Shown piece by piece: positions 19,734 to 64,000 of a stretch of DNA of 64,000 nt. A model generated the notes under the pieces. It ran no database searches, had not been told where the DNA came from, and was given only the letters and a program-made list of their open reading frames with translations. The position numbers and the translations under genes are program-made. Every line of letters begins with the position of its first letter. Position 1 is the stretch's first letter. The DNA lies in the NCBI RefSeq assembly GCF_056746865.1, contig NZ_CM163382.1; one strand, written 5' to 3'.

Positions 19734-20312
19734 ATGGATCTCAATACACTCATCTCACAATATGGTTATGCCGCGCTGGTGATCGGTAGCCTGGCGGAAG
19801 GTGAAACCGTGACTTTGCTGGGAGGCGTTGCGGCACATCAGGGGCTATTAAAGTTCCCGCTGGTGGTACTTTCTGTGGCGCTTGGCGGCATGATTGGCGA
19901 CCAGGTGCTTTATCTGTGCGGGCGGCGCTTTGGCGGCAAGCTATTACGCCGTTTCTCGAAACATCAGGATAAAATTGAGCGGGCGCAGAAACTTATCCAA
20001 CGCCATCCGTATCTGTTTGTCATTGGTACGCGTTTTATGTATGGCTTTAGGGTGATTGGCCCGACGCTGATTGGTGCCAGCCAGCTGCCGCCGAAAATCT
20101 TTCTGCCACTGAATATCCTTGGCGCATTTGCCTGGGCGTTGATTTTTACCACTATCGGTTACGCTGGTGGTCAGGTGATTGCGCCGTGGTTGCACAATCT
20201 CGACCAGCATTTGAAGCACTGGGTCTGGTTGATTCTGGTCGTGGTTCTGGTGGTAGGCGTGCGCTGGTGGCTGAAACGGCGCGGGAAGAAAAAGCCGGAT
20301 AATCAGGCATAA
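19734..20312 (+). CDS. yohD: DedA-family inner membrane protein
   Basis: 192-aa ORF from MDLNTLISQYGYAALVIGSLAEGE (typical DedA N-terminus). Confidence 0.75.
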   Translation: MDLNTLISQYGYAALVIGSLAEGETVTLLGGVAAHQGLLKFPLVVLSVALGGMIGDQVLYLCGRRFGGKLLRRFSKHQDKIERAQKLIQRHPYLFVIGTRFMYGFRVIGPTLIGASQLPPKIFLPLNILGAFAWALIFTTIGYAGGQVIAPWLHNLDQHLKHWVWLILVVVLVVGVRWWLKRRGKKKPDNQA

Positions 20313-20335
20313 AGCAGTTGCCACAGATAAGCATT

Positions 20336-20400
20336 CACGCCACATCCGGCACCGGATGTTCCATGCCTGATGCGACGCTGGCGTGTCTTATCTGGCCTAA
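20336..20400. repeat. REP (repetitive extragenic palindrome) cluster between convergent yohD and yohF
   Basis: GCCTGATGCGACGCTGGCGTGTCTTATCTGGCC plus a second CCGGATG-type palindrome. Confidence 0.7.
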
Positions 20401-20430
20401 CCCAATGAAATAACCACGCACCTCACTGCG

Positions 20431-21192
20431 CTATTCTGGGTTGAACTGCGGATTCGCCAACATAAAGCCGCCATCCACTATCAACGACTGCCCAGTGGTG
20501 TAATTTGCGCCCTCCGAACAAAGCCACACCACCAGGCTGGCAATCTCATGCGTTGCGCCAAAACGCCGCAAGGGAATCGAAGGCTCCGCGCCGGGCTTCA
20601 CGTCGCCATCATCCATGCCGTTCATTGGCGTGGCGATCGCCCAAGGTGCAACCGCATTCACCAAAATCTTATGCCTGACCAGCTCCAGCGCCATCGCTTT
20701 GGTTAACCCGCCGAGCGCATGTTTAGCGGCTGTGTAGGCGCTGGCATCCGGCAACGGCGTATGTTCATGCACCGACGTAATGTTGATGATGCGACCACCC
20801 TGCCCTTGTTTCACCATCTGGCGGGCAGCAATTTGCGAGCATAAAAATGCACCATCGACATCAACGGTAAAAATCTTGCGCCACTCATCGAAAGCCATAT
20901 CAAGAAACGGCGCTTTGGTCATTGCGCCCGCATTATTCACCAGCACATCAATACGCCCCAGCCGTTGAATGAGTTTCTCCAGCGCCAGTGCCCCTTCTGG
21001 TAGATTGCCGAGATCCAGCTGCACGATCTCCGCACGTACGCCGTGGCTAACCACCTCACGCGCGGTATCTTTTGCCCCTTCTTCATCAGAGTGCCAGGTA
21101 ATACCAATATCAAACCCCTGCTGCGCCAGTAATAACGCGCACTCTTTGCCGATCCCCGAATCGGAGGCGGTAATAATCGCAACCTGTGCCAT
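20431..21192 (-). CDS. yohF: short-chain dehydrogenase/reductase
   Basis: 253-aa ORF with SDR glycine motif (TASDSGIGKE) and NNAG. Confidence 0.8.
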   Translation of the reverse strand: MAQVAIITASDSGIGKECALLLAQQGFDIGITWHSDEEGAKDTAREVVSHGVRAEIVQLDLGNLPEGALALEKLIQRLGRIDVLVNNAGAMTKAPFLDMAFDEWRKIFTVDVDGAFLCSQIAARQMVKQGQGGRIINITSVHEHTPLPDASAYTAAKHALGGLTKAMALELVRHKILVNAVAPWAIATPMNGMDDGDVKPGAEPSIPLRRFGATHEIASLVVWLCSEGANYTTGQSLIVDGGFMLANPQFNPE

Positions 21193-21244
21193 CGAGTTCT
21201 CCACTTAACGCTGAATAAACGTTAAGTATAGAAGGCGCATATCA

Positions 21245-22681
21245 TCAGCGTTTGTAACCCCCGCCCAACGCACCAGTGAGTTGAATGGAGGCATCCAGCC
21301 ACTGCCCTTGCAATAACAGGCCATTGGCCCGCTCGCGAAGCGCCGGGATTCTGGCTTCGCTGACGCGGGAACCGGCAATGATGCCCGCGTTAAAGCGCGC
21401 CTGCGCAAGACCTACTACACGCAAGGCATCGCGCTCAATTTGCGCCTGATGCTGGTTTTTCTCCGCCAGTGTCTGAACCTGACTGGCTGCCCGCGCCACG
21501 TCATTCACCGCTTCAACCACCGCTTTGTTGTAGCTGGCGATAGACAAGTTGCTTTCGGCTTTTGCGATATCGAGGTTGGCGTTAAGACGACCACTATCGA
21601 AAATGGGTAGCGTCAGGCCTGCCGTAACGCCCATTTGCTGCGCGGAATGACGGAACAGATCGCTTAAGTGCAACGCATCCTGTTGCAGGAAGGCCATCAG
21701 GTTGATGTCAGGATAAAATGCCGCTTTTGCCGCATCAATGGTGCTTAGCGATGACTCAACGTACCAGTGCGCCGCCTGCAAATCTGCCCGCCGGGCCAGT
21801 AAGGAGTACCCCAGTTCATCAGGAAGCTGGCTTGCCACTTTCGGCAACGCGACCGGTTTAAGCTTCAGTGACTTTGTCTGGTGATTTGTGAGTGCATTTA
21901 ACCGTGCCTCAATAATTTTCATTTTCCCCGCGACATCGTTGAGCTGCTGCCGGGTTTTGCTGGCATTAATATCGGTTTCCACACCTTCAACTGAAGAAGT
22001 AATCCCGTTCTGATATAGCTGGCGATCGGTGGCGATAATGGTGTTCTGCTCTTTTTCGATTTGCTGTAAGACAGTGTTTAACGCCGCCTGGGTTTGCCAC
22101 TCCCAGTACAGACGGGCTACGCTGCCAGCCAGCAATTGGCGGGTTTGCTCGCGTTCCGCCGCCCGTGCTTTAACCGTACCCAGGCGAGCAGTAACCTCCG
22201 CCCGATTCTTTCCCCAGATATCGAGATGCCAGCCCGCCGTTAAGCCAAAAGTACCGTTGGTGTACCACGGACCGGTCGTACCTGCGGCAGGATCGTTCAG
22301 AGCAAACGGCCCCATTAACCCTTCTGCCGACATTTTTTGCCGCTCCATATCCGCAGAAAAGTCGATCTGCGGACCATCCTGAGTGGCAACTGCCTTCGCC
22401 TGGGCTTCAGCCAGCTGAATGCGCTGTTCAGCCACCTGCATATCCGGTGCGTTCTGTAGTGCATTGTTAATTAATGAAGTGAGTTGATTATCGTGATACT
22501 CCAGCCACCATTGGCTGTCTGGCCAACCATTTTTCAGCGCCGTGGGTAATGCGGTGTCAACTTGTGAAGCGGGCGTTTGCTGGCTTAACGCCTGGCGGGT
22601 TTCATGCATAGGCGCACACCCGGCCAGCATCAGTAACAGCGGAAAACAGGCGATGGCGGGATAAAAGGAATCACGATTCAT
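21245..22681 (-). CDS. mdtQ: outer-membrane efflux lipoprotein (OprM/NodT family); reading frame intact here
   Basis: 478-aa ORF from MNRDSFYPAIACFPLLLMLAGC (lipobox) with no internal stop or frameshift. Confidence 0.75.
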   Translation of the reverse strand: MNRDSFYPAIACFPLLLMLAGCAPMHETRQALSQQTPASQVDTALPTALKNGWPDSQWWLEYHDNQLTSLINNALQNAPDMQVAEQRIQLAEAQAKAVATQDGPQIDFSADMERQKMSAEGLMGPFALNDPAAGTTGPWYTNGTFGLTAGWHLDIWGKNRAEVTARLGTVKARAAEREQTRQLLAGSVARLYWEWQTQAALNTVLQQIEKEQNTIIATDRQLYQNGITSSVEGVETDINASKTRQQLNDVAGKMKIIEARLNALTNHQTKSLKLKPVALPKVASQLPDELGYSLLARRADLQAAHWYVESSLSTIDAAKAAFYPDINLMAFLQQDALHLSDLFRHSAQQMGVTAGLTLPIFDSGRLNANLDIAKAESNLSIASYNKAVVEAVNDVARAASQVQTLAEKNQHQAQIERDALRVVGLAQARFNAGIIAGSRVSEARIPALRERANGLLLQGQWLDASIQLTGALGGGYKR

Positions 22682-22904
22682 GGGGGAATAATCAGGTAAG
22701 AAAAGGTGCGCGGAGATTACCGTGTGTTGCGATATATTTTTTAGTTTCGCGTGGCAATACATCAGTAGCAATAAAACGACATATCCAGAAAAATATACAC
22801 TAAGTGAATGATATCTTCCGATTTATCTTAATCGTTTATGGATAACGGCAAAGGGCTTCGTTTTTTCCTATACTTATTCAGCACTCACAAATAAAGGAAC
22901 GCCA

Positions 22905-22988
22905 ATGAAAATTATACTCTGGGCTGTATTGATTATTTTCCTGATTGGGCTACTGGTGGTGACTGGCGTATTTAAGATGATATTTTAA
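22905..22988 (+). CDS. yohP: small membrane protein (27 aa)
   Basis: Short ORF MKIILWAVLIIFLIGLLVVTGVFKMIF with upstream AAGGAA RBS. Confidence 0.55.
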   Translation: MKIILWAVLIIFLIGLLVVTGVFKMIF

Positions 22989-23360
22989 AATTAATTAATG
23001 TCATCAGATCCGAAAATAACGAGAATATTTCAGTCTCTCATCCTGTTGCGCTCCTGTCATGTGCATTGCTTCATATAATCACTGGCGCAAGGAGCGCGCA
23101 GGGGGCGACCAATCGCCGCCGCCCCCTGCACCCCCGGGCTCTGGCGAACAAAATCGCCGCTGCGCGGTGCCCTCGGCTTATCCCTTACGGCTACCGGGTC
23201 GGGCGCGAGGTAACATCCCTGTAAAACGCGCCCTCAGCCCACATCCATGTGGGCTGCCCCGGCCTTCGGGGAACGCCTCGGCGATTTTGACGCCACCAAA
23301 CAACCGTGCGGCCTATTGATAAAGAGCTAACACATTGTCAAAAAACATCACTATGGTTTT

Positions 23361-24308
23361 TTAGAGTTTCTCGATATCAATTGCCTGAATAGCCCTTGCA
23401 ATATCAGGGGAATTATTCAACACCCGAACATGCTGAAATAATTCCGTTGCTTCATCGTATTCTTTACGCAAATAACTCAACCACTGTTTAATCCGCGCAA
23501 CGTGATATAACCCGGTATCGCCCTGCTTTTCCAGACGGGTATATTTTTGCAGCAAAGCAACTACCTCCGGCCACGGCATTCGCGGTTCGTTATATTTTAC
23601 CACCCGGCTCAGGTTGGGAATATTGAGCGCCCCGCGACCAATCATCACTGCGTCACAGCCGCTGATCGCCATGCATTGTTGCGCGCTCTGCCAGTCCCAG
23701 ATTTCACCGTTGGCAATCACCGGAATATTCAGCCGCTGGCGAATCTCGCCAATCGCCTGCCAGTCAATATGCTCCGCGCGGTAACCCTGCTCTTTCGTCC
23801 GCCCATGCACCACCAGCTCTGTAGCACCAGCCTGTTGAACCGCATCGGCGATTTCAAATTTCTTCTCACCGCTGTCCCAGCCCAGACGCACTTTTACGCT
23901 GACGGGCAAATGCGCCGGTACAACTTCACGCATCGCTTTTGCCCCCTGGTAGATGAGTTCAGGATCTTTGAGTAACGTCGCGCCGCCGCCGCTACCGTTA
24001 ACCGTTTTCGACGGGCAGCCGCAATTGAGATCCACACCCCAGGAACCTAACTCGACCGCACGGGCGGCATTCTCTGCCAGCCATTGTGGGAACTGACCTA
24101 ACAACTGCACGCGCACCAGCGTACCGGAAGGTGTCCGGCTGGCATTTTGTAGCTCAGGGCAAATGCGATGAAAGACTTTTATTGGCAGCAGTTGATCCAC
24201 CACGCGGACAAACTCGGTGATGCACAGATCGTAGTCGTTAACTTCGGTCAGCAATTCACGCACCAGAGAGTCGAGTACACCCTCCATCGGAGCCAGTAAC
24301 ACACGCAT
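23361..24308 (-). CDS. dusC: tRNA-dihydrouridine synthase C
   Basis: 315-aa ORF from [15 protein letters not shown]... (Dus TIM-barrel family). Confidence 0.9.
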
Positions 24309-24510
24309 ATCATCACCCGCAAAAAAATGAGGCGCTATGTTAGCGCCTATGGTCAACGGATTAAAGGTCTGCAAAGAGGGATTGCTGCAAACTGCATTCC
24401 CTCTCTATGCTTGATGTATGCCTGAGTTCGCTGCTCATTGCGTAATGCCCGGGAGCGAAAAAATAAGCGCTGATTTCTTAATGTGATCGGTAGCACGTTT
24501 TACGAATTAA

Positions 24511-25637
<1,127 letters not shown>

Positions 25638-38653: not shown

Positions 38654-40633
38654 TCAGAAGCGATAATCCACTGCCATAAAGTAACGACGTCCGTCTTCGT
38701 TATAGCTGTAGTCGTCACGACTGAGATCCTTGTCGCCAAGGTTCAGCACGCCTGCGCGCAGTTTGACGTCTTTAGTCACCTGCCAGGCCGCGCCGGTATT
38801 CCAGATGGTATAACCGCCAGGTGTTTTAGCCGTCGCGCTGTCGGCTCGTTTCTGCCCGGTATAGTGACCAGAAACATAGAATGACCAGTCTTCCAGCGCC
38901 AGCGGTTTCCAGTCCAGCGTACCGTTAGCGGTATGGAACGGCAGATCGGATAGCGGTTTGTTTTCGCCGTTGCTGACATCACGACCATCGTTGTAGGTGT
39001 AGTTGAGTGACAGTTTCCATTCATCGTTGAACGGAATTTTCAGTTCGGTTTCCACGCCCTGAATACGAGCTTTGTTAACGTTGTAGTAGCTAAATACCGG
39101 CACACCGTTCGCTGTAAAACCAACAAAGTTTTGGTAGCCCGGTGCAGCATTGACGTCAGACGTACGGCTGATGCTGATACGATCTTTCACATCGTTACGG
39201 AAAACGGTAACGCTGGATTCAACCCCTTCCAGCCAGCCTTCTTCACCCATGTAGTAAAGCCCCAGCTCCCAACTTTCGCTGGTTTCTGGTTTCAGATCCG
39301 GGCTACCCACAATCTTACATGCGCCACGGCAGGAATTGCTCGTCCAGTCAGGGCTAAGTTGCAACAGAGAAGGTGCTTTAAATGCCGTCGCCCAGCCCCC
39401 TTTCACCGTTACGGTGTCGGTGGCGTTATAAACCAGGTAGGCACGCGGACTCCAGTGTTCACCGTAGGTTTCGTGATCGTCCATACGCACGCCGGTCGTC
39501 AGCGCCAGCGGCTCGAAGATCCGCCATTCATCTTCCACAAACAGCGCGTACTGGCTGGCAGACGTTTTGGAGCTGGTTCCCCCGGTCAGGTTCACCGCAT
39601 CGCTAAGTTTGTCGTGACGCCATTCACCGCCAACCGTGAGAAACTGATTAATCGCCGTCAGCGGCAACGTGTATTTGCCGTCGACCGTATTGCTTTCGGA
39701 AGTTATCGGGCTGCTGTTGCCAGGGTTTTTGTTCTCGACTTTCTCACCGTAGTATTTCAGTTCGCTGGTGCCGTAATCCCAACGCCCATTATGGCTGACG
39801 GAGTAGTTCTAGCGTTCCAGGCGGTTTTTGTCCAGCGAGTCGGAATCACGATCCTGACGGTCGAAACCGTATCCGGCAGTAAAATCGTGATTTTGATTCG
39901 GTGTCCAGGCAAATTCGACATTGCCGTCGCGGCTGGAGAATCCTTCAATACGCGGCGTATCTCCGGTATCGGTGGTCGTTGAGTTTTGCGGGTCATCCTT
40001 TTCACGTTTTGCCAGGCTGCCGTAAGCTTTCATTCCCAGCACACCATCAATTAATGGTCCACTGGTAAAGAACTGACCGTTATAGGTATCACCGCGATCG
40101 CGATGTTCCTGAATGGTGGTATCGACGGTAACGGTACCCGACCATTTCTGACCGATTTTTTTGGTGATGATATTCACTACACCGCCGAGCGCATCGGAAC
40201 CGTACAGCGACGACATCGGGCCACGGACCACTTCAATACGTTCGATGGAATCGACCGGGATCCAGTTCAGATCGAAATCATTGTGGCGGAAGACGGCATT
40301 GCGGGAGTTAACGCGTTTACCGTCGACAAGAATCAGGGTGTAGCTGCTGTCCAGACCACGAATACTAACGCCCTTACGGTTATCCCCTTCGTTCGTCAGT
40401 TGTACGCCAGGCACTTCTTTGAGGACATCCTTCAGATTCTGTACCGGTTTTCGCTGCAGGTCTTCCTGGGTAATGACGCTGATACTGGCGGGTGCATCTT
40501 TAAGGTTTTGTTCAACGGAAGATGCAGTGACAACCATCGTTTCGCCATCATCATCGACCGCTAACACAGGCCATGCACAAGAAATAGCGGACAAACACAG
40601 CCCGACCCGTACGAAAGGGTTCAACCTAAACAT
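38654..40633 (-). pseudogene. cirA: TonB-dependent catecholate siderophore / colicin I receptor, interrupted by an in-frame TAG (minus-strand codon at 39809-39811)
   Basis: Two ORFs (39809..40633 and 38654..39667) lie in one frame across 1980 nt; translation reads ...[17 protein letters not shown]...; N-terminus [25 protein letters not shown] and C-terminal ...YFMAVDYRF are typical of a TonB-dependent receptor. Confidence 0.8.
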
Positions 40634-48252: not shown

Positions 48253-48307
48253 CTGAACCGCCCCGGAAATCCTGGAGACTAAACTCCCTGAGAAAGAGGT
48301 AAACAGG

Positions 48308-48634
48308 ATGACTAAAAATACTCGTTTTTCCCCCGAAGTCCGTCAGCGGGCGATTCGTATGGTTCTGGAAAGTCAGGATGAATATGACTCACAGTGGGCG
48401 GCAATTTGTTCCATTGCCCCAAAGATTGGCTGTACGCCGGAGACTCTGCGTGTCTGGGTTCGCCAGCATGAGCGGGATACCGGGGGCGGTGATGGTGGGC
48501 TCACCAGCGCTGAACGTCAGCGTCTGAAAGAGCTGGAACGTGAAAATCGTGAACTGCGCCGCAGTAACGATATCCTTCGCCAGGCTTCCGCTTATTTTGC
48601 GAAGGCGGAGTTCGACCGCCTCTGGAAAAAATGA
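48308..48634 (+). CDS. IS3-family transposase OrfA (HTH DNA-binding)
   Basis: 108-aa [26 protein letters not shown]... with leucine-zipper-like C-terminus; A6 run at its 3' end. Confidence 0.9.
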
Positions 48635-49521
48635 TGCCACTGCTGGATAAGCTGCGTGAGCAGTACGGGGTCGGACCGGTATGCAGCGAACTGCATATTG
48701 CCCCGTCAACGTATTACCATTGTCAGCAACAGCGACATCATCCGGATAAACGCAGTGCCCGTGCGCAGCACGACGACTGGCTGAAGAGAGAGATACAGCG
48801 CGTATACGATGAAAATCATCAGGTGTACGGTGTGCGTAAAGTCTGGCGTCAGTTGTTACGGGAAGGAATCAGGGTGGCCAGATGTACAGTGGCACGTCTC
48901 ATGGCGGTTATGGGACTTGCCGGTGTTCTCCGGGGTAAAAAGGTCCGTACGACCATCAGCCGGAAAGCCGTTGCCGCAGGCGACCGCGTAAACCGTCAGT
49001 TCGTGGCAGAACGACCTGACCAGCTGTGGGTGGCTGATTTTACTTACGTCAGCACATGGCAGGGCTTCGTCTATGTGGCGTTTATCATTGATGTGTTTGC
49101 CGGATACATCGTGGGGTGGCGGGTCTCATCGTCTATGGAAACGACATTCGTGCTGGATGCGCTGGAGCAGGCGTTGTGGGCCCGTCGTCCGTCTGGCACC
49201 ATCCATCACAGCGATAAAGGCTCTCAGTATGTGTCACTGGCCTATACGGAGCGACTAAAAGAAGCCGGATTACTGGCATCAACAGGGAGTACAGGCGACT
49301 CGTATGACAACGCGATGGCTGAGAGCATCAATGGTCTTTACAAAGCGGAGGTAATACACCGTAAGAGCTGGAAAAACCGTGCAGAAGTGGAACTGGCCAC
49401 ACTAACGTGGGTGGACTGGTATAACAATCGACGATTGCTGGGAAGGCTGGGCCATACTCCTCCGGCAGAAGCAGAAAAAGCTTATTATGCTTCCATCGGA
49501 AACGATGATCTGGCAGCCTGA
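48631..49521 (+). CDS. IS3-family transposase OrfB (DDE integrase catalytic domain)
   Basis: 296-aa ORF in the -1 frame relative to orfA, overlapping at AAAAAATGATG; DDE-type core; probably expressed as an OrfAB fusion by -1 frameshifting. Confidence 0.9.
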
Positions 49522-49563
49522 GTTCACAGATAAAACACTCTCCAGGAAACCCGGGGCGGTTCA

Positions 49564-50362
49564 CACTGTTGACGTCCACTTCGACGTACATCTCCTGGGT
49601 TTTAATGCCATCAGGGTTAATCAGATAACCGATGCAGGTGGCGTCATGCACCGGGCCGCCAGCCAGGCCGTAGTTTTCGAACTGCGTTTTTAGAGTGAAA
49701 TTCATGATGTCGCTGAACAGCTCTCCGGCGGGGCCGCCTACCCTTTCCATCCGGGCAATCACGTCCGGGGTGCAAACAGTCTGGTTGGTGAGATCGAGGC
49801 CCATCATCACCAACGGAACGCCGGAGGTGAACACCACGCGTGCGGCTTCCGGGTCGGCAAAGATGTTGAACTCGGCAGATGGGGTGAAGTTGCCTGTACC
49901 GTAAGCGCCGCCCATTAGCACAATTTCACGGATTTTCGGCAGGATCGCGGGTTGCATACGCATTGCCACCGCGATATTTGAAAGCGGACCAACCGGCACC
50001 AGAGTGATATCACCATCGCTTGCCATCAGGGTATCAATGATATATTTCACCGCATGAGTGCTTTCTGCCTGGCGGGTCAGCGGCCCGAATACCGGGCCAT
50101 CAAGTCCGGTTTCACCGTGAATATTATCGGCAACGATTTGTTGACGCATAATGGGCTGTGGCATCCCCGCATAAACCGGAACATTAATCTCCAGTTTCTG
50201 GCAAACATTCAGGCCATTAATTAATGTTTTATCAAGCGTCTGATTACCCGCCACAATGGTGATGCCTAATAAATCAATCACCGGATGTTTCGCGGCCATC
50301 ATTATGGCAATAGCATCATCATGACCCGGATCACAATCCAGAATAATTTTTCTCTTTTCCAT
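49564..50362 (-). pseudogene. rihB: 5' part of pyrimidine-specific ribonucleoside hydrolase gene (N-terminal DCDPGHDD motif), truncated by the IS; the ORF runs on into IS sequence
   Basis: ORF 49328..50362 begins [22 protein letters not shown]... (nucleoside hydrolase signature) and switches to unrelated IS-derived residues after ...VDVNS. Confidence 0.85.
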
Positions 50363-50530
50363 TGTTTATTTCCTCTGTTTCCAGTTGCGTTATTTTTTCT
50401 ACAGCAAAGAAAATTCGACCGGGCCGATGATTGAATCTTAACAACAGCGTAAGTATGCTAAATATGAGAAATCTCATAGCGGATAAACATCGTGAAAGAA
50501 ATCCACAATAATGATCTTAAGCAGCAATTG

Positions 50531-51190
50531 ATGAGTGAATCCGCGTTTAAGGATTGCTTTTCAACGGATGTTTCAGCCGATACGCGGCTGTTTCATTTTT
50601 TAGCGCGTGACTACATAGTGCAGGAAGGGCAACAGCCGTCCTGGCTGTTTTATCTGACGCGAGGCCGCGCCAGGCTTTACGCCACGCTTGCTAATGGTCG
50701 CGTGTCGCTGATCGATTTCTTTGCCGCTCCCTGTTTTATTGGCGAGATTGAGTTAATCGACAAAGACCATGAACCGCGTGCGGTGCAGGCTATTGAAGAG
50801 TGTTGGTGCCTTGCGCTCCCTATGAAACATTACCGTCCACTGTTATTAAACGACACCCTATTTTTACGAAAACTTTGCGTCACCTTAAGTCATAAAAATT
50901 ATCGTAATATTGTTTCTTTAACTCAGAATCAATCATTTCCGTTAGTGAATCGCCTGGCAGCTTTTATATTACTCTCACAAGAAGGTGATCTTTATCACGA
51001 AAAGCATACGCAAGCGGCAGAGTATTTAGGCGTTTCTTATCGACATCTTTTATATGTTCTCGCGCAATTCATTCACGACGGTTTATTAATTAAAAGCAAG
51101 AAAGGATATCTAATTAAAAACAGAAAGCAGTTGTCAGGACTGGCGCTGGAGATGGACCCGGAGAATAAATTCTCCGGGATGATGCAGTAA
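50531..51190 (+). CDS. yeiL: Crp/Fnr-family transcriptional regulator
   Basis: ORF with cNMP-binding-like domain and C-terminal HTH; start assigned at [10 protein letters not shown] (an upstream in-frame ATG at 50492 is also possible). Confidence 0.75.
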
Positions 51191-51204
51191 AAAATAATCT
51201 GCAA

Positions 51205-51252
51205 TAGCGCGATTGCCGGATGCAACGCTTAATAAGGCGTACATCCGGCAAT
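51205..51252. repeat. REP element between convergent yeiL and psuT
   Basis: GATTGCCGGATGCAACGCTTAATAAGGCGTACATCCGGCAATG. Confidence 0.75.
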
Positions 51253-51257
51253 GAAAC

Positions 51258-52508
51258 TCAAGCTAAACCAATAAAGAACCCGGCAATGGTCGCGCTCATC
51301 AGGTTGGAAAGCGTTGCTGCTGCCAGCGCCCGTAAACCAAGCTGGGCGATTTCCGGCGCGCGTTTTGGCGAAATAGCCGAAAATGCGCCAACGACAACAC
51401 CGATAGAACCAAAGTTCGCAAAACCACAAAGCGCAAAGGAGATAATCGCCACGGTTTTCACTTCCAGCGTGCCGCCCGTTTGCAGGTATGGGGAGAAACT
51501 CAGGTAAGCGACAAATTCGTTAATCGCCAGTTTCTGCCCAATCAGGCTACCCGCAAGGTTGGCATCACTCCAGTCCACACCCATGATCCACGCCAGCGGT
51601 GCCAGCACATAGCCAAAAATACTTTCCAGAGAGGCATTGGCGAAACCAAACCAGCCGCCAATTCCGCCGATAATGCCGTTGATCAGCGCAATAATTGCGA
51701 CAAACGCCATTACCACCGTCGCTACACCAGCGGCGATTTTCAGCCCGGTCATCGCACCGCTCGCCGCTGCTTCGATAAAGCTTTTTGGCGGCGTTTCGCT
51801 GAACGACAGATTTTCAAATGTGACCTGCGAAGGCTCGGTTGCCGGGCTAAGAATACGTGCAAACAAAATACCGCCAGGGATCGCCATCAGCGATGCCGCT
51901 AACAGGTAGTCAATTGGTACGCCCATTCCGGCATAACCAATCATCATCGAACCAGCAATGGACGCCATCCCGCTACAAATAGCCGTAAACAACTCGTTGC
52001 GATTCATGCGATCGATAAACGGTTTAACGATCGCCGGGATCTCATTTTGCCCGAGGAAAATAGTAGTAACCGCAACAAAAGATTCGATTTTGCTGATGTT
52101 GAGGGCTTTCTGGAAAATGCTGCCAAGGATGCGAATCAGCAGCCCCATCACGCCAATGTAGTACAGCAGACTGATGAGCGCAGTAACGAAGATAATCGCC
52201 GGAAGTACGCGAAAGGCGAAGATAAAGCCCGCGCCATCAAACAGGACATCCATTTTCGGCCCGACCAATGAACCAAAAATAAAGGCGCTACCGGCATCAC
52301 TGTAAGACATCACTTTATGAACGCCTAATGCCGCCTGTTCTACTGCCCATTTTCCCGGTGGGAAGTAGAGCATGATGCCACCAATAGCGATTTGCAGCAG
52401 CAGTGCGGCTCCAACCGTGCGCAAACTGATGCCCTTTTTATTCACTGACAACAGAAATGCTATTGCCAGTAACACCACCATCCCCACAACACTTCTCATT
52501 ATATCCAT
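51258..52508 (-). CDS. psuT: NupC-family nucleoside (pseudouridine) transporter
   Basis: 416-aa ORF, paralog of nupX; upstream of psuG/psuK on the same strand. Confidence 0.85.
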   Translation of the reverse strand: MDIMRSVVGMVVLLAIAFLLSVNKKGISLRTVGAALLLQIAIGGIMLYFPPGKWAVEQAALGVHKVMSYSDAGSAFIFGSLVGPKMDVLFDGAGFIFAFRVLPAIIFVTALISLLYYIGVMGLLIRILGSIFQKALNISKIESFVAVTTIFLGQNEIPAIVKPFIDRMNRNELFTAICSGMASIAGSMMIGYAGMGVPIDYLLAASLMAIPGGILFARILSPATEPSQVTFENLSFSETPPKSFIEAAASGAMTGLKIAAGVATVVMAFVAIIALINGIIGGIGGWFGFANASLESIFGYVLAPLAWIMGVDWSDANLAGSLIGQKLAINEFVAYLSFSPYLQTGGTLEVKTVAIISFALCGFANFGSIGVVVGAFSAISPKRAPEIAQLGLRALAAATLSNLMSATIAGFFIGLA

Positions 52509-52601
52509 AATGATTTTCCCTTCATGCCAGTAAACCCGGCGTCAGCGCCAGGTTTTGGTATGCTTGATGAGTACGGGCGACGGCTTTCTGCCCGTCAGAA
52601 A

Positions 52602-53540
52602 TTAACCCGCGAGACGCTGGTATTCTTTGGCAATTTCGCTCGCCAGAATGGCGTTGTTGAACACCAGTTGGATGTTGGATTTCAGGCTGTCACCGCCAGT
52701 CAGTTCAGCAACACGAGCCAGCAGGAACGGTGTGCTTTCTTTACCAATAACGCCCTGCTCTTCGGCTTCGGCGACGGCTTGATCTATGGCTGCATTGATA
52801 GATTCCTCCGGCATCGCAAACTGTTCCGGGATCGGATTCGCCACCACCAGGCCACCGTTCAGACCGCTTTGCCATTTCACCGCCATTGCACGAGCGATTT
52901 CCGTGGCACTATCAAGGCGAATACTGACTTCAAACGGGCTGGTGCGGCAGAAAAACGCAGGCAGCGCTTTGGTCTGATAGCCAATTAACGGCACACCGAA
53001 GGTTTCTAAATACTCAGTGGTTAATCCTAAATCGAGAATAGATTTCGCCCCGGCACAAACAACGGTGACATTAGTATTTGCCAGTTCTTGCAAATCGGCA
53101 GAAATATCGAAGGTATGTTCCGCCCCGCGATGCACACCACCAATTCCCCCTGTGGCAAATACTTTAATTCCGGCAAGCGCCGCAATAATCATCGTTGAAG
53201 CAACGGTAGTTGCGCCATTTTTTCCGGCGGCAACAACAAAAGGTAAATCGCGACGACTAACTTTGGTCACGTTATGCCCTTCACTACCCAGCAATTCAAT
53301 TTCTTCTTTGCTTAAACCCACTTTCATCACGCCGCCAATAATGGCGATAGTGGCAGGTACAGCGCCCTGTTTACGAATAGTTTCTTCAACTTCAATTGCG
53401 GTCTGGGCATTTTGTGGGAACGGCATCCCGTGAGAAATAATGGTCGATTCCAGCGCCACAACCGGTTTTTTGTTTTTTAAAGCGTCCTGCACTTCCGGGG
53501 AAATTTGTAATAATTCAGGGGAAATTTTTAATTCAGACAT
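52602..53540 (-). CDS. psuG: pseudouridine-5'-phosphate glycosidase
   Basis: 312-aa ORF; overlaps psuK by 13 nt. Confidence 0.85.
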   Translation of the reverse strand: MSELKISPELLQISPEVQDALKNKKPVVALESTIISHGMPFPQNAQTAIEVEETIRKQGAVPATIAIIGGVMKVGLSKEEIELLGSEGHNVTKVSRRDLPFVVAAGKNGATTVASTMIIAALAGIKVFATGGIGGVHRGAEHTFDISADLQELANTNVTVVCAGAKSILDLGLTTEYLETFGVPLIGYQTKALPAFFCRTSPFEVSIRLDSATEIARAMAVKWQSGLNGGLVVANPIPEQFAMPEESINAAIDQAVAEAEEQGVIGKESTPFLLARVAELTGGDSLKSNIQLVFNNAILASEIAKEYQRLAG

Positions 53541-54469
53541 TCTGCGTTCTCCACTAACGATATAACGTTGGCAATCGATAAATCGGGGTTATTGGTGTAT
53601 TCACAGGAGAGCGCCATTGACGAACATCCCTGTGCGAAACGAACAGATTCGGCAAACGGCATTCCGTCTACCCAACACGAAGCAAGTCCCGCCATCATGG
53701 CATCGCCCGCTCCGGTAACATTAATGACATTGGTTTTGATCGGCGCAGACCAACCACTTTCACCGCTGATATCACTGTAATAAACGCCGTCGCCGCCCAT
53801 GCTCATTACCAGTCGGTTCAGGCCATGTTGATGGAACCAGGCAGCAACTTTTGCCACATCTTCACGCCCTGACAAAGCAATCCCACTCAAGGTTTCCGCT
53901 TCAAGGCGGTTTGGCTTCAGGGTGTGGATCTGATTTAGACGGTCACGCACTTTGACACATTTCCATGCCGAAACCGGATCGACAAATACAGGTACATTGG
54001 CGGCATTATCCAGAATCCATGCCAGTGCCTCTTCACTGATATTACAGTCCGCGACAATGACCTTTGCCCTTTGAATAAATTCACGGTGCTGTGCGAGATA
54101 TTCAGCTGTAATAGCGTTGCTAATATTCATGTCATTTATAGCAACCAGCATTTCACCGGTATTATCGAGTAATGATAAATAGCTCGACGTGTTTTCTCCC
54201 GGCACAATCAGGCATTTATCGACATAAACACCAGATTGATTGGTTTGCGTTAGCAACGATTGACCATAAAAATCACTGCCTACTGCGCTCAGTAGCCAGG
54301 ATTTATTCCCCAGCAACGCCAGGTTTTGTGCAATATTGCGCCCGACTCCACCAGGCGTAAATTTTATTTTACCTGGATTTGAATCCGCATAATTTAATGA
54401 TTCATGTGAATATCCGGCGACATCAATATTCGCCGAACCTATAATTACGACATAATCCTTTTCGCGCAT
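53528..54469 (-). CDS. psuK: pseudouridine kinase (PfkB family)
   Basis: 313-aa ORF with PfkB motifs (GGVGRN, ...GAGDAMMAG). Confidence 0.85.
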   Translation of the reverse strand: MREKDYVVIIGSANIDVAGYSHESLNYADSNPGKIKFTPGGVGRNIAQNLALLGNKSWLLSAVGSDFYGQSLLTQTNQSGVYVDKCLIVPGENTSSYLSLLDNTGEMLVAINDMNISNAITAEYLAQHREFIQRAKVIVADCNISEEALAWILDNAANVPVFVDPVSAWKCVKVRDRLNQIHTLKPNRLEAETLSGIALSGREDVAKVAAWFHQHGLNRLVMSMGGDGVYYSDISGESGWSAPIKTNVINVTGAGDAMMAGLASCWVDGMPFAESVRFAQGCSSMALSCEYTNNPDLSIANVISLVENAECLN

Positions 54470-54715
54470 AGCACGTCCTCTGGTAAAAAATTACCAACCC
54501 TGTCAATCCACAAGAATATTGATACTGCAAAGACGGTTTAAACATGTGTTCATATTTAAACATGTGCTCATAGTATGCATGTTTTACGTAAAGTAAATTA
54601 CCGCCAGAGAGGCAAAATGGGCAGATTTGAGCAGGCTCACAAAACGCGATTAAATGCCTGAATTATAAAAACGGGGAATTTGTGACGGGATGCACAGAAC
54701 AGGAACAATAAAAAA

Positions 54716-54735
54716 GGGCAGAAATTAATCTGCCC
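54716..54735 (-). terminator. Putative intrinsic terminator downstream of the fruBKA operon
   Basis: GGGCAG-AAATTAAT-CTGCCC hairpin followed by a U6 tract on the minus strand. Confidence 0.55.
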
Positions 54736-54892
54736 TTGAGGAAATAACCTTAGTGTTTGATGAAGGTTTCAGGTTTCTACTAAAAGATAAAACCATTTAA
54801 ATTCATAAAATTACATTCACAAACCGGTCATTCTCTTTGCGCGCATCAAATGTTACAGGGCAGGAAATTTCTGCCCTGTAACACACCTTTTA

Positions 54893-56584
54893 TTACGCTG
54901 CTTTCGCTACTGCGTCCACTTCCGGACGTTTCAGGAAGGCATAGGCCAGACCCGCCACCAGCGTACCGGCAATAATGGCTACCAGGTAACCCAGTACCGG
55001 CGTAATAGCGCCAGGGATCAGCAGAACAAACAGACCACCGTGCGGTGCCATCAGTTTCGCACCAATCGCCATTGAGATTGCGCCAGTCAGCGCCCCACCC
55101 ACGATACAGCACGGCAGCACACGCATCGGATCACGAGCAGCAAACGGAATTGCACCTTCCGAAATGAAGCACAGTCCCAATACCAGAGCGGCTTTGCCAC
55201 CTTCCTGCTGCGCTTTGTCGAATTTGCGACGCGCCACCATTGTTGCCAGGCCCATTGCCAGCGGTGGCACCATACCTGCCGCCATAATCGCCGCCATCGG
55301 GCCATAGGTTTGAGTACTCAGCAGACCCACACCGAATGCGTACGCTGCTTTGTTTACCGGACCGCCCATGTCAGTACACATCATGCCACCGAGGATCGCC
55401 CCCAGCAGAACCGCATTCGCAGTCCCCATGGTCTGCAGCCAGTGAGTCAACCCTTCGAGAATGCCAGCAACCGGTTTACCGATCAGGTAGATCATCGCCA
55501 GACCGACCACCAGACTGGAAATTAGCGGAATGATCAGAATCGGTTTCAGCGCCTCCATACTCTGTGGCAGTTTCAATTGCGTACTGATTAACTTCGCAAT
55601 GTAACCAGCCAGGAAGCCCGCAATAATACCGCCAATGAAGCCAGAACCAGTGCTGACCGCCAGCATACCGCCAATCAGACCCGGCGTGAGACCCGGACGA
55701 TCGGCAATGGAAAAGGCAATATAACCTGCCAGTACCGGCACCATCAACGCAAAGGCTGAACCACCACCAATCTGCATCAGCGCCGCAGCCAACGTACCCG
55801 GCTCTTTAAACGCTTCGATACCAAAAGCAAAAGAAAGCGCGATACACAGACCACCTGCAACGACCATCGGCAGCATGTAAGAGACGCCAGTCAGCAAGTG
55901 ACGGTAAGCGCCTGCACTCTCTTTCTTACCTTCAGTGGTCGCTGTTTGAGTTTTGCCCGCCGGTTCATACGGCGTTGCTTCAGCAACCGCATTATCCAGT
56001 TCCTGCGCGGTTTTCTTCAGCGCCAGACCGGTAGAGGTACGATACATCGGTTTACCAGCAAATTTCGCCAGATCCACTTCGATATCTGCCGCCACAATCA
56101 CCAGATCCGCTGCTGCGACTTCTTCGGGAGTGATTGCATTACCCGCGCCAACAGAACCACGGGTTTCAACTTTCACCCACCAGCCACGTTTTTTCGCTTC
56201 GGTTTCAATGGCTTCAGCCGCCATAAAGGTGTGTGCTACGCCAGTCGGGCAAGCAGTCACCGCAACTACGCGTTTCGGACCGCTGGCGGCAACCGGTGCT
56301 GTCGCAGCGACCGGCGCAGTGTAAGGTTTCGCATGGCCTTTGGCTTCACTCAGGAACAGCTCAGGGTGCGCAACTGCCCGGGAAATATCGCCCAGCCAGA
56401 CATTTTTACCGTTCAGCGCGCTGTCGTTCGGGATGGAATCACCGAGAACAATCGCCATTTCAGCGTCGTTCGGATTGTCGATGATTTCCAGTTTTGCTTT
56501 TCGCGCCGCCGCGCCCAGCAGGGTCTTCGCCATATAGGCGCGTGCCTGACCGAGATTAGCGTCAATAATCAGCAGCGTTTTCAT
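54893..56584 (-). CDS. fruA: fructose PTS EIIB'BC component
   Basis: 563-aa ORF, large membrane EIIC domain; fruBKA order. Confidence 0.95.
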   Translation of the reverse strand: MKTLLIIDANLGQARAYMAKTLLGAAARKAKLEIIDNPNDAEMAIVLGDSIPNDSALNGKNVWLGDISRAVAHPELFLSEAKGHAKPYTAPVAATAPVAASGPKRVVAVTACPTGVAHTFMAAEAIETEAKKRGWWVKVETRGSVGAGNAITPEEVAAADLVIVAADIEVDLAKFAGKPMYRTSTGLALKKTAQELDNAVAEATPYEPAGKTQTATTEGKKESAGAYRHLLTGVSYMLPMVVAGGLCIALSFAFGIEAFKEPGTLAAALMQIGGGSAFALMVPVLAGYIAFSIADRPGLTPGLIGGMLAVSTGSGFIGGIIAGFLAGYIAKLISTQLKLPQSMEALKPILIIPLISSLVVGLAMIYLIGKPVAGILEGLTHWLQTMGTANAVLLGAILGGMMCTDMGGPVNKAAYAFGVGLLSTQTYGPMAAIMAAGMVPPLAMGLATMVARRKFDKAQQEGGKAALVLGLCFISEGAIPFAARDPMRVLPCCIVGGALTGAISMAIGAKLMAPHGGLFVLLIPGAITPVLGYLVAIIAGTLVAGLAYAFLKRPEVDAVAKAA

Positions 56585-56600
56585 TATGCCTCTCCTGCTG

Positions 56601-57539
56601 TCAGTTAAAAGGTTGTAAGTCGACGCGCGCCATCATTGCGGCCAACTGCGGACGATCGGTAATACCCACATTGCTTTGACTTACCGCCAGGGCTGCAACA
56701 GCTGTCGCCAGACGCAGTGTGTGTTCACTGGATTCACGCATCAGCAAGCCATAAATCAGGCCGCCAACCATAGAATCCCCTGCGCCAACGGTGCTTACGA
56801 CATCGACTGACGGTGGTTTGGCGATCCATTCGCCGGAGGCATTAACCCAAAGCGCGCCTTCGGCACCCAGTGAAATAACGACATGCGCGATACCTTGTTC
56901 ACGTAGCGCATGTGCAGCTTCAATCACATCTTTCATTTCAGGCAGTTTACGGCCTGCCCAGATTTCCAGCTCGCGGCGGTTAGGTTTCACCAGCCACGGT
57001 GCCGCTTTCAAACCTGCTACTAACGCTTCGCGGCTACTATCAAAGATAATGCAAGGACACTGACTACGCAGGCGAGTCATCCAGTCGGTGAACGCTTCCG
57101 GGCTGACGCCTGACGGTAAGCTTCCGCTGACACAGACCATATCGAACTGACCGAGCCAGCTCAGAGAATCAGTCACAAAGCGTTCCCAGTCGGCGGGGGT
57201 GACTTCAAAACCCGAGAAGTTGAAGTCGGTCACTTCGCCGTCTTTTTCCGTCAGCTTAACGTTAATTCGGGTGCGCCCCTGTACAACCTGGAAACGGTTG
57301 GCAATGCCCAGCTCGCTGAACAGTTGCTGAAAACCATCCTGATTGTCTTTACCGAGGAAGCCGCCAACGGTGACATCAATTCCCAGGTCTTTTAATACTT
57401 TGGCCACGTTGATGCCTTTACCCGCCGCATGCAGACCGGTGGTTTTCACCAGGTTCACTTCGCCGCGTTCAATTTCCGGGCAGAAACCAACAAGGTCATA
57501 AGCCGGATTAAGGGTGATAGTAGCAACACGTCTGCTCAT
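56601..57539 (-). CDS. fruK: 1-phosphofructokinase
   Basis: 312-aa PfkB-family ORF; 1-nt overlap with fruB stop. Confidence 0.95.
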   Translation of the reverse strand: MSRRVATITLNPAYDLVGFCPEIERGEVNLVKTTGLHAAGKGINVAKVLKDLGIDVTVGGFLGKDNQDGFQQLFSELGIANRFQVVQGRTRINVKLTEKDGEVTDFNFSGFEVTPADWERFVTDSLSWLGQFDMVCVSGSLPSGVSPEAFTDWMTRLRSQCPCIIFDSSREALVAGLKAAPWLVKPNRRELEIWAGRKLPEMKDVIEAAHALREQGIAHVVISLGAEGALWVNASGEWIAKPPSVDVVSTVGAGDSMVGGLIYGLLMRESSEHTLRLATAVAALAVSQSNVGITDRPQLAAMMARVDLQPFN

Positions 57540-58669
57540 TATGCGCCCTCCCCAAGACCAGCAGCGATAGCGTCGCCAATGGCTTTCAGCGCCTGTTCAG
57601 CATCTGCACCCTGGGCGGTAAAGCGTAGGCGATGACCTTTCTTAACGCCAAGTGCCACAACTTTCATCAGACTACGTCCGTTTGCCGGTTTGCCGGTGCC
57701 ATCAAGGTTTGTCACGGTAATATCACTGTTAAATTGTTTAATGGTATTGACCAGCATGGTACCTGGACGAGCATGCAGGCCGTGTTCATTGCGCACCACA
57801 AACTCCGCGCTTAACACGTCGTCGGTCGGCGCATCATCGCTGGTCAGCAACGCCAGCAACGTTGCCGCATCCGCTTTCAGCAAGCGGTCAGCTTTATTGT
57901 CGAGTAACAAATCAGCGAGACGCTTAAGAACCGCAATGGGCTGATCGTCATTCATCGCCACACTCACCAGCATGGCTGCCGTTTCGCCGTCCACATCAAA
58001 AGCATTTGCCGCACGGCTTACCGCAATCGCGCTACGCAGATTGCCTTCGGCGCTATCGCTCAGCCAGATACCCTGTCCGAGGTTCAGCGGTTGTTCATTG
58101 ATGGCTTTGGTGACGAAAGTGGCGTCAACTGCCCCCGCCTCTTTCAGACGAGCAGCGTTCAGCGCCTGAAGAGTCAGCAGATCGCTGGCGACGATATCCA
58201 GCGTCAGCATTTCGTTGTCGAGCTTCAGCTGCTCACTCTGCTTTTCGCCCATCAGCAATGCGCGAAGTTCTTCTGCTGTTGTTGCTGACTTCAGTTGTTC
58301 AGCAACGGAATCATCGCTCAGTACGTGGGTCAGCTGGCGTAGCAGGCCCAAATGTTCATCCGAGCTGGCAGCAATACCGATCGCCACGTACGCTACCTGG
58401 CCGTCACCCCAGGTGACGCCTTCCGGGAACTGAAATACCTGAACGCCGGTTTTCAGCACCTGATCGCGGGTGTCGGTAGTGCCGTGTGGAATAGCAATAC
58501 CATTGCCGAGGAACGTAGAGGTTTGCTGTTCGCGCGCCAGCATGCCATTGACGTAGCCTTCAGCTACATTACCGGCCTGCACCAGCGCCGCAGCGACCTG
58601 GCGAATCGCCTCTTCTTTGTCTCCGGCCTTTTCGCCCGGATGGATGTCCTGTACGGATAACTGGAACAT
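57539..58669 (-). CDS. fruB: fructose PTS EIIA-FPr (diphosphoryl transfer protein)
   Basis: 376-aa ORF with EIIA and C-terminal HPr-like domain (EHGLHARP). Confidence 0.95.
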
Positions 58670-58755
58670 AGTTCTCCTCTCTTGCTGAATTGAAACGATT
58701 CAGCTTCTATGAGAAAAAAAGCGCCAACCTGGCTTAGGGTTAAAGACAAGATCGC

Positions 58756-58769
58756 GCTGAAACGTTTCA
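58756..58769. promoter_or_regulatory. Putative Cra (FruR) operator upstream of fruB
   Basis: GCTGAAACGTTTCA palindrome about 87 bp upstream of the fruB start; matches the Cra consensus. Confidence 0.6.
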
Positions 58770-59036
58770 AGAAAGCATAATACTTCTGTTTCAGCACGCA
58801 AGGAAAGCCGTAAAGTTATGAGCAAAAGTTTGATGTGCTGCACAATTTTTTGTCATTTTTCCTAATTGCTGATGGGAAAATCCGTTATCAGCAATTTCAT
58901 TTCAGCAGCGTCAGCAGCCAATCAGCAACAGTGAAATGGCATTTTGATTATTCGTGGCGCTTTTGATTTCGCTGTCTGTTTATTTTCTGACAAGCAGCGT
59001 AAACTCCGCGTCTTCCTCTTCCAGTGATCGACCAGC

Positions 59037-60218
59037 ATGCATAACTCCCCCGCAGTCTCCAGCGCGAAATCGTTTGACCTGACCTCGACGGCGTTTTTAA
59101 TCGTTGCTTTTCTCACCGGTATTGCGGGCGCTCTGCAAACCCCGACACTCAGTATTTTTCTTACTGATGAAGTACATGCCCGCCCGGCGATGGTGGGATT
59201 CTTCTTTACCGGCAGCGCTGTCATTGGGATTCTGGTAAGTCAGTTTCTCGCCGGGCGCTCTGATAAGCGCGGCGATCGCAAATCGCTGATTGTCTTTTGC
59301 TGCCTGTTAGGCGTGCTGGCCTGCACTCTTTTTGCCTGGAATCGCAACTACTTTGTTTTGCTATTCGTTGGCGTCTTTCTTAGCAGCTTTGGCTCGACTG
59401 CTAACCCGCAAATGTTTGCCCTCGCCCGTGAACATGCTGACAAAACCGGACGTGAAGCGGTGATGTTCAGCTCTTTTTTACGCGCTCAGGTTTCACTGGC
59501 ATGGGTCATTGGCCCGCCGCTGGCTTATGCCTTAGCGATGGGTTTCAGCTTTACGGTAATGTATCTGAGCGCAGCGGTAGCGTTTATTGTTTGCGGCGTG
59601 ATGGTGTGGCTGTTTTTACCGTCGATGCAAAAAGAACTTCCACTGGCGACCGGCACGGTTGAAGCGCCGCGCCGTAACCGTCGCGATACGCTGCTGCTGT
59701 TTGTCATTTGTACATTGATGTGGGGCTCGAACAGCCTGTACATCATCAACATGCCGCTATTTATTATCAACGAACTGCATCTTCCCGAGAAACTGGCCGG
59801 TGTGATGATGGGGACCGCCGCCGGGCTGGAAATCCCGACCATGTTGATTGCCGGATATTTCGCCAAACGTCTGGGTAAGCGTTTCTTAATGCGCGTTGCT
59901 GCCGTGGGTGGCGTCTGTTTTTACGCAGGAATGCTGATGGCGCATTCACCTGTCATTCTGTTGGGCTTGCAGCTGCTAAATGCTATTTTTATTGGCATTC
60001 TGGGTGGCATCGGGATGCTCTATTTTCAGGATTTGATGCCCGGTCAGGCAGGTTCAGCCACCACGCTCTATACCAACACTTCGCGCGTGGGCTGGATCAT
60101 CGCAGGATCAGTGGCGGGCATCGTCGCCGAGATCTGGAATTATCACGCTGTGTTCTGGTTTGCGATGGTGATGATTATCGCCACTCTGTTTTGCTTACTA
60201 CGGATTAAAGATGTTTAA
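59037..60218 (+). CDS. setB: MFS sugar efflux transporter
   Basis: 393-aa 12-TM ORF. Confidence 0.85.
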
Positions 60219-60469
60219 GGCGCGGTCAGGATTTCCAGATCGATAAGCCAGGTCATCGCCTGCTGACGCGAGTTACCGCACATTTCAGCGCTGGCTTGTA
60301 AGCCTGCACAGACTTTCGGTCGCAGTGGCGAGGTGAAAATTTTACAGCGTTGCTGTTCATCAAGCTGAATGCAGGGCGTATTGGCGGGCTTGCCATCTGG
60401 CATACCGGGAATAGGGCTGGAAATTGAAGGGGCAGTGCAACACGCCCCGCAACCCGGACGGCATTCCAT
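60215..60469 (-). CDS. yeiW: small cysteine-rich protein (84 aa)
   Basis: ORF from [18 protein letters not shown]...; 10 Cys residues; 3' end overlaps setB stop by 4 nt (convergent). Confidence 0.65.
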
Positions 60470-60623
60470 ACGTTGTTCTCTTAAGGTTAACCACCGGATT
60501 GATGAGCGCGCACAGTACCACCTTTTTTGCACCAGCAAAAGTGCGAATACCACTTGCCCGAAAGGCCCGTCGCGAGTACTTTGTCGCGATATTTTTGACA
60601 TTTTCGACTACAGGAATTTTTCG

Positions 60624-61196
60624 ATGCCAAGAGCGAACGAAATTAAAAAAGGTATGGTACTGAATTACAACGGCAAACTGCTGCTGGTTAAGGATATTGA
60701 TATTCAGTCGCCCACTGCCCGCGGTGCCGCTACGCTGTACAAAATGCGTTTTTCTGATGTCCGTACCGGGCTGAAAGTAGAAGAGCGTTTCAAAGGAGAT
60801 GATATCGTTGACACCGTGACGCTGACCCGCCGTTACGTTGACTTCTCCTATGTCGATGGCAACGAATATGTCTTTATGGATAAAGAAGACTATACCCCGT
60901 ATACCTTCACCAAAGATCAGATTGAAGAAGAGTTGCTGTTTATGCCAGAGGGCGGCATGCCGGACATGCAGGTGCTGACCTGGGACGGTCAACTGCTGGC
61001 GCTTGAGCTGCCGCAGACCGTTGATCTGGAAATCGTTGAAACCGCACCTGGCATCAAAGGGGCATCTGCCAGCGCCCGTAACAAACCGGCGACATTGAGC
61101 ACTGGTCTGGTGATTCAGGTACCAGAATACTTAAGCCCGGGCGAAAAAATTCGTATCCATATCGAAGAACGCCGTTATATGGGTCGTGCTGACTAA
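60624..61196 (+). CDS. yeiP: elongation factor P-like protein
   Basis: 190-aa ORF from [30 protein letters not shown] (EF-P fold N-terminus). Confidence 0.85.
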
Positions 61197-61418
61197 CTTC
61201 AGCCGCATGCAGAAAAGGGATAGCTCAGGCTGTCCCTTTTTTAATTTATTATACCAATCTTCTATTTTGCGCTTCCTGAACACCTTACGTCCTCAATTTT
61301 CACTCGTTGATTGATCGCCCTCACACTTCATCGCATTAACAATCCAGACCAATTTCAATTGCTGTCATATAACTTTACACTGTCATTGTTAATTAATCGT
61401 TACTAAGACGTGACTCCT

Positions 61419-63989: not shown

Positions 63990-64000
63990 GGTTGCCTGCG

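Follow-up and report, generated by a model that had tools for sequence, protein, structure and literature searches.

An intact wild-type mdtQ allele in an Escherichia coli genome and the single-base deletion that distinguishes the K-12 pseudogene

MdtQ, MdtP, and CusC of Escherichia coli are named as acylated OMFs, and TolC is not (bioRxiv 10.1101/2025.03.19.644130). The function of MdtQ is 'not elucidated' according to a 2025 review of TolC, which describes mdtQ as core-conserved despite its pseudogene label (PMC11762307). No experiment on the intact E. coli MdtQ was found in the literature. The Klebsiella pneumoniae ortholog, YohG (479 aa), is identified in the outer-membrane proteome (PMC4404324). 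In E. coli K-12 MG1655 (NC_000913.3), mdtQ (b2139; formerly yohG/yohH) is annotated as a pseudogene of 1436 bp at 2227323-2228758, as the original prediction had stated. A PGAP-annotated MG1655 record calls the gene 'frameshifted'.

The closest paralogous family is MdtP (YjcP), which is encoded in the ytcA-mdtNOP operon and represented by the model NF007390. MdtP is a NodT-type lipoprotein of similar length, and the same drug phenotypes are cited for MdtP and MdtQ (PMC11762307). MdtP-like genes lie within YtcA-MFP-FUSC-OMF operons. By contrast, mdtQ is an orphan, and the gene that comes after it encodes an SDR. The best homolog with a solved structure is VceC of Vibrio cholerae (PDB 1yc9), which belongs to the MFS-type VceCAB pump. 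From this similarity a trimeric alpha/beta-barrel fold is expected for MdtQ, although identity is low and alignment accuracy is moderate (0.84). Unlike mdtQ, vceC is found together with the genes of its pump. Against the TolC-family model, MdtQ scores 54 bits, below the cut-off of 225. MdtQ has a lipobox, whereas TolC is no lipoprotein; the identity between the two is about 12% (PMC11762307).

The window analyzed here is a 64-kb stretch of E. coli DNA that contains mdtQ on the minus strand (Table 1). The region very probably carries an ordinary wild-type mdtQ allele. Its product would be a NodT-subfamily OMF lipoprotein of the TolC/OprM superfamily with a partner encoded elsewhere, and the loss in K-12 would be specific to that lineage. 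The finding of an intact mdtQ is correct but ordinary, and it is already documented. RefSeq annotates mdtQ as intact in thousands of genomes, and the intact gene represents no new gene, system, or mechanism.

Reading frame, family membership and lipoprotein signal

In the ORF listing and in the raw sequence, mdtQ (formerly yohG) is a single unbroken frame of 478 codons plus TGA (1437 nt). The mechanical ORF is longer, reaching upstream as far as a TTG at 22771 (508 aa), with its stop side at 21245. The protein scores 1025.5 bits against the NCBIfam MdtQ equivalog NF008524 (PRK11459), for which the cut-off is 650. Residues 1-478 align end to end with positions 1-478 of the 478-position profile, which places the protein within the MdtQ equivalog. 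In strain 118UI, RefSeq annotates mdtQ at identical coordinates with the product WP_001078160.1. This product is present in E. coli 118UI, GMM076, and many clinical and poultry isolates, and both the mdtQ DNA and the protein are identical to those of the window. The N-terminus, MNR..., is common to the mdtQ orthologs of E. albertii, Salmonella, and Citrobacter. By the profile alignment from residue 1, the 118UI coordinates, and this common N-terminus, the ATG at 22681 is the real mdtQ start. A chance ORF is far out of the question because the frame spans 478 codons and matches a curated family over its full length. The single intact 478-codon frame of the original prediction, at 21245-22681, thus agrees with the ORF, the equivalog model, and the 118UI annotation.

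The protein also belongs to the NodT subfamily, with 274.3 bits against TIGR01845 (cut-off 210.05). The Pfam family OEP (PF02321) matches with 107 bits in two stretches, of which residues 69-266 are the best, and the protein has the tandem OEP repeat. Residues 51-477 align with the solved OMF VceC (E = 3e-39), and weaker structural-homolog alignments are found with OprM, SilC, CmeC, CusC, MtrE, OprN, and OprJ. The window protein does not belong to the MdtP family. It scores 356.7 bits against NF007390, below the cut-off of 597, and its gene has no adjacent YtcA, MFP, or FUSC genes. The gene order pbpG-yohC-yohD-yohF-mdtQ-yohP-dusC is the same in the window, MG1655, 118UI, and Salmonella, so that mdtQ occupies the orthologous position.

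The MdtQ sequence has a NodT-type N-terminal lipoprotein signal with a lipobox cysteine. By regular expression and hydropathy, the lipobox L19-A20-G21-C22 fits the pattern [LVI][ASTVI][GAS]C, follows a hydrophobic core, and is succeeded by Ala at +2. The lipobox cysteine is aligned in all ten of the orthologs and paralogs compared. The motif LLMLAGC, pointed out in the original prediction, is present at residues 16-22; the lipobox proper is LAGC with Cys22.

By homology, the MdtQ precursor would be exported by Sec and then acylated at Cys22, its predicted lipidation site, after cleavage by signal peptidase II. The lipoprotein would be sorted by Lol to the outer membrane, since the +2 residue is Ala and not Asp. 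Homologous proteins suggest a trimer with a 12-stranded beta-barrel and a long periplasmic alpha-helical tunnel. Such a trimer would dock an adaptor in the periplasm and a pump in the inner membrane and would be their exit duct. The present data show directly that the ORF is intact, which family the protein belongs to, where the K-12 lesion lies, how frequent the alleles are, and that purifying selection and synteny hold; the lipidation, the trimeric channel, the efflux role, and the type of partner are inferred.

Table 1. Features of the mdtQ region, in window coordinates
Feature	Position	Strand	Evidence
mdtQ (yohG) CDS, intact, 478 codons + TGA	21245..22681	-	ORF, NF008524, PF02321, 118UI annotation
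Predicted lipoprotein signal peptide, residues 1-22: n-region MNRDS, hydrophobic core, LAGC, Cys22	22616..22681	-	Regular expression/hydropathy, aligned Cys
A5 run (T5 on + strand), codons K50-N51; A4 in K-12	22530..22534	-	Alignment with NC_000913.3 b2139; A re-insertion
First OEP repeat, residues 69-266; second OEP stretch toward C-terminus	21884..22477	-	PF02321; VceC 1yc9 alignment
mdtQ-yohF spacer, 52 nt: weak A/T-rich hairpin, no U-tract, then GGAG and yohF ATG	21193..21244	-	Sequence; terminator scan
yohF, SDR-family oxidoreductase, directly downstream	20431..21192	-	118UI annotation; ORF
yohP, 27-aa small membrane protein, divergent, upstream of mdtQ	22905..22988	+	118UI/MG1655 annotation; Pfam YohP in Salmonella locus

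Local context and expression signals

In the terminator scan, no terminator-like site is found in the spacer between mdtQ and yohF. The arrangement of mdtQ with a co-directional SDR gene after it is kept in Salmonella (L013/L014) and at the locus of a 60%-identical ortholog (L015). Because the spacer has no terminator-like feature and the adjacency is conserved, co-transcription of mdtQ and yohF is plausible and is considered likely. The conserved adjacency hints at an operon and a functional link, which have not been described before.

Upstream of mdtQ, the 25 nt before the ATG (22682-22706; …CTGATTATTCCCCC-ATG) contain no Shine-Dalgarno-like motif, whereas the downstream yohF has GGAG. The missing motif suggests that translation initiation of mdtQ may be weak or unusual. 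In the promoter and terminator scan of positions 20300-23400, nothing rises above the shuffled expectation, with two promoter-like matches found and 2.8 expected. The mdtQ promoter lacks experimental confirmation (PMC11762307). In the Rfam scan of positions 20000-24600, no RNA element is tied to mdtQ.

Two repeat-like features are present in the neighboring intergenic regions. Between yohD and yohF, at 20293-20397 (+), there is a sub-threshold Rfam match to naRNA4, a REP-derived nucleoid-associated RNA (44.6 bits, gathering threshold 59.5, E = 8e-6). This match is probably a REP element. The mdtQ-dusC intergenic region contains, at about 23045-23317, the TRIP1c repeat of PMC10888264, which lies 363 bp upstream of the mdtQ start and 43 bp past the dusC stop; the 679-nt spacing is the same as in K-12. 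TRIP1 repeats are reported to be recombination sites for chromosomal rearrangements (PMC10888264). A GC-rich 86-aa ORF at 23059-23319 is probably an artefact of TRIP1c.

The K-12 lesion, allele frequencies and strain background

In a global alignment, the window copy and b2139 differ by 26 substitutions and one indel (98.2% nucleotide identity). The indel is one A lost in K-12: the AAAAA run of the window, at gene nt 148-152 (codons K50-N51), is only AAAA there. The pairwise alignment proposed with the original prediction therefore locates the K-12 lesion as a 1-bp deletion in the A5 run. The deletion causes a -1 frameshift in K-12 mdtQ; 19 aberrant residues follow, and codon 70 is a stop. This stop falls just ahead of WP..WW.Y.D.QL, the conserved motif with which the mature domain opens. 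When one A is added to the K-12 sequence, a clean 478-codon ORF results, and the protein differs from that of the window only by S39A, N262S, and H267N. Because the re-inserted A restores the full frame, the K-12 pseudogene reads as a single, recent, lineage-specific lesion that truncates the protein before the folded domain.

The MG1655 gene is at the same locus, in the same synteny (yohF-mdtQ-yohP-dusC), and once repaired has three amino-acid differences from the window protein. It differs in that it carries A4 and its translation ends at codon 70, whereas the window copy carries A5 and is uninterrupted. The window copy is not the K-12-type pseudogene allele, as its frame is open. Ribosomal or transcriptional slippage that restores the K-12 frame was considered and is rejected as unlikely. 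The wild-type sequence would result from a -1 slip after AAA, yet this would require the tRNA to pair anew on GAA; for transcriptional slippage, a run of A4 is too short.

Of 5426 complete E. coli genomes, 5423 have the mdtQ locus, and in 5407 the match covers 80% or more of the query; the matches carry the annotation mdtQ. Of 5411 complete E. coli genomes, 4556 match a 72-mer with the A5 allele exactly. The corresponding 71-mer with the K-12 A4 allele has an exact match in 355 of the 5411. The A4 matches listed (60 records) are K-12 laboratory lines or genomes with K-12-like coordinates. These listed matches include MG1655, C600, J53, DH5alpha, DH1, RR1, NCM3722, and AG100, and also WCHEC035053S1G0. 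DSM 498 likewise shows the 71-nt span. In the remaining genomes (approximately 500), another base differs; the three such genomes among the 40 rows sampled have a span of 72 nt, equal to that of A5.

All seven of the divergent non-K-12 alleles compared (ST131, APEC O1:K1:H7, 13081, Sanji, LWY24, 20AR0192, and the window) have an mdtQ of 478 codons. Across eight alleles, the mean mdtQ dN/dS is approximately 0.06 by the Nei-Gojobori method, with a pairwise range of 0.03-0.12 and dS up to 0.12. Orthologs of 478-479 aa are found in E. albertii (94% identity), Salmonella (82%), and Citrobacter (81%). A metagenomic protein that is 59-60% identical still scores above the MdtQ cut-off with 712 bits, and the orthologs overall are 478-481 aa long. 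In all other E. coli lineages sampled, mdtQ is intact and under strong purifying selection. Given the prevalence of A5, the low dN/dS, and the orthologs across genera, the intact gene is the ancestral, selected, and normal state in E. coli, with K-12 as an outlier.

Despite the overall purifying selection, mdtQ is lost or damaged again and again in particular lineages. Variants with in-frame internal deletions are present in E. coli, one of 435 aa that lacks 43 residues (P0014; 43 contigs) and one of 454 aa that lacks 24 residues (P0004). The possibility that clusters of 435-aa 'MdtQ [E. coli]' are gene calls on the downstream frame of K-12 is rejected, as they are internal in-frame deletions instead. 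The gene is independently truncated in Salmonella Typhi and Paratyphi A (PMC9241588), and K-12 grows without an intact copy. From these deletion variants, the truncations, and the growth of K-12, mdtQ is dispensable in some settings.

The fifth A could in principle be an assembly or homopolymer error, in which case the true gene would be frameshifted as in K-12. The difference does sit in a homopolymer, a classic place for indel errors on some platforms, but the run is only 5 nt long and the same 72-mer is found in the 4556 complete genomes described above. Over the 24 kb around mdtQ, more than 20 independent complete assemblies show 100% identity to the window. The allele also differs from K-12 at 26 other positions and is therefore not in a K-12 background, and an error of this kind is extremely unlikely. 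It is very unlikely that the ORF is intact but cryptic, with little or no expression and too little time for decay. A cryptic gene would be in keeping with the lack of a Shine-Dalgarno-like motif 5' of the ATG, a promoter signal not above chance, and a promoter that awaits experimental confirmation in the review (PMC11762307). It would also fit dispensability in K-12 and sporadic loss in other lineages. A silent gene would not, however, keep a dN/dS near 0.06 with dS up to 0.12. The length, start, and lipobox are kept across genera down to 59-60% identity, and the Klebsiella ortholog is found in the outer-membrane proteome, both of which argue against a cryptic gene. An ordinary wild-type allele is the preferred reading. 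Because the copy is intact and purifying selection is strong, a functional mdtQ product is likely in this strain, in line with the functional channel component suggested in the original prediction.

Two parts of the window, 1-48255 and 49564-64000, are collinear with 118UI (NZ_CP032515.1; a urine isolate from Mexico) with only two SNPs. Outside mdtQ, the window and 118UI differ by an amber codon in cirA, one SNP in yeiH, and an IS in rihB. The cirA gene is at 38654-40633 (-), and the SNP at 39811 (A in the window, G in 118UI) changes codon 275 from CAG to TAG (Q275amber). CirA is intact in 118UI. The amber codon should inactivate this receptor for catecholate siderophores and colicins Ia and Ib. 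CirA is also an uptake route for siderophore-conjugated drugs. The second SNP, at 44228, affects yeiH codon 217, which is Thr in 118UI and Ala in the window and MG1655. It is private to 118UI, and the window is ancestral at this codon since Ala is common to the window and MG1655.

The rihB gene is broken by a 1310-bp IS3-family element at 48254-49563, with an orfA of 108 aa and an orfB of 296 aa. The terminal inverted repeats of the element are TGAACCGCCCCGG, and the target duplication is CAC (3 bp). It matches regions annotated as 'IS3-like element IS1203 family transposase' and is IS1203/IS629-like. In a search with the cirA-to-rihB segment including the IS, no complete E. coli genome of the collection has the IS at this rihB site. 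Both cirA and rihB are intact in MG1655. The amber codon in cirA and the IS insertion had each been reported in the original prediction and are found here at the positions given; with the 26 mdtQ substitutions, they bear out its view that the source is not MG1655. By its sequence, the window DNA comes from a close relative of a lineage that is widespread in humans and poultry.

Candidate pump partners and implications for K-12 efflux biology

No adaptor or pump gene is found near mdtQ within the 64-kb window, and the gene is therefore an orphan whose partner would be encoded elsewhere. A clue to this partner comes from the genomic context of the nearest clusters in a 50%-identity representative library, all of which resemble the MdtP model more closely than the MdtQ model. 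In P0127, P0128, and P0129 (41%, 35%, and 37% identity to MdtQ, respectively), the OMF gene is the last gene of a YtcA / AaeA-type MFP / FUSC / OMF operon. In P0125 (41%), it is directly 3' of a FUSC gene, and in P0132 (39%) it is flanked by genes for an MFS transporter and an EmrA-like adaptor. None of these five sampled relatives has an adjoining RND gene. A 2021 review tabulates AaeAB with an undefined OMF, as 'AaeAB-?' (PMC8277102). These paralog contexts (as distinct from MdtQ's own context), the MFS-type pump of VceC, and the undefined OMF of AaeAB together suggest, tentatively, that the partner of MdtQ may be a pump of the FUSC or MFS type whose adaptor is of the AaeA/EmrA type (for example AaeAB, EmrAB, or EmrKY) and not an RND pump.

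MdtQ could alternatively be a back-up exit duct for RND pumps (AcrAB, AcrEF, MdtABC, and others) and an alternative to TolC in wild E. coli, which is unlikely. The NodT subfamily does include the RND partners OprM, OprN, OprJ, CusC, and AdeK. In the 2025 review, K-12 mdtQ 'null mutants' are cited as more susceptible to puromycin, acriflavine, and tetraphenylarsonium (PMC11762307). The RND-partner models score far lower, however, with 126 bits for AdeK and 99 for the CusC-type model compared with 357 for MdtP, and no RND genes are beside the nearest relatives sampled. The phenotype comes from K-12, which is already frameshifted, and is therefore not cleanly attributable to MdtQ. The same review traces the mdtQ/yohG drug-susceptibility phenotype to Sulavik 2001 (PMC11762307). 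If that study used K-12, the phenotype cannot stem from loss of the MdtQ protein, and the K-12 'mdtQ null' might instead reflect polarity on yohF, or noise.

Within the tentative FUSC- or MFS-type reading, a specific form is distinctly unlikely as it stands. Intact MdtQ would be the missing exit duct for a pump that has an AaeA/EmrA-type adaptor and either no known OMF or an assumed TolC, for example AaeAB. Such a role would have escaped notice because K-12, in which mdtQ is frameshifted, has been the strain for almost all genetic work on efflux. If it were true, the conserved pairing of mdtQ with yohF (SDR) would point to a small unit by which a compound is modified and exported.

To a gene that is already documented, the present analysis adds the exact K-12 lesion, allele counts in 5411 genomes, dN/dS values, the conserved mdtQ-yohF pair, and the tie of the sister clade (MdtP-like) to FUSC operons. 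The intact mdtQ, the cirA amber codon, and the IS in rihB together are a simple marker of non-K-12 sequence. Owing to a single-base deletion, K-12 is without one of the four outer-membrane efflux channels of E. coli. Nearly all clinical isolates carry an intact mdtQ under purifying selection, and conclusions on TolC dependence and OMF redundancy drawn in K-12 may therefore not transfer fully to these isolates. The K-12 lesion may have hidden the partner and the substrates of a conserved fourth OMF.
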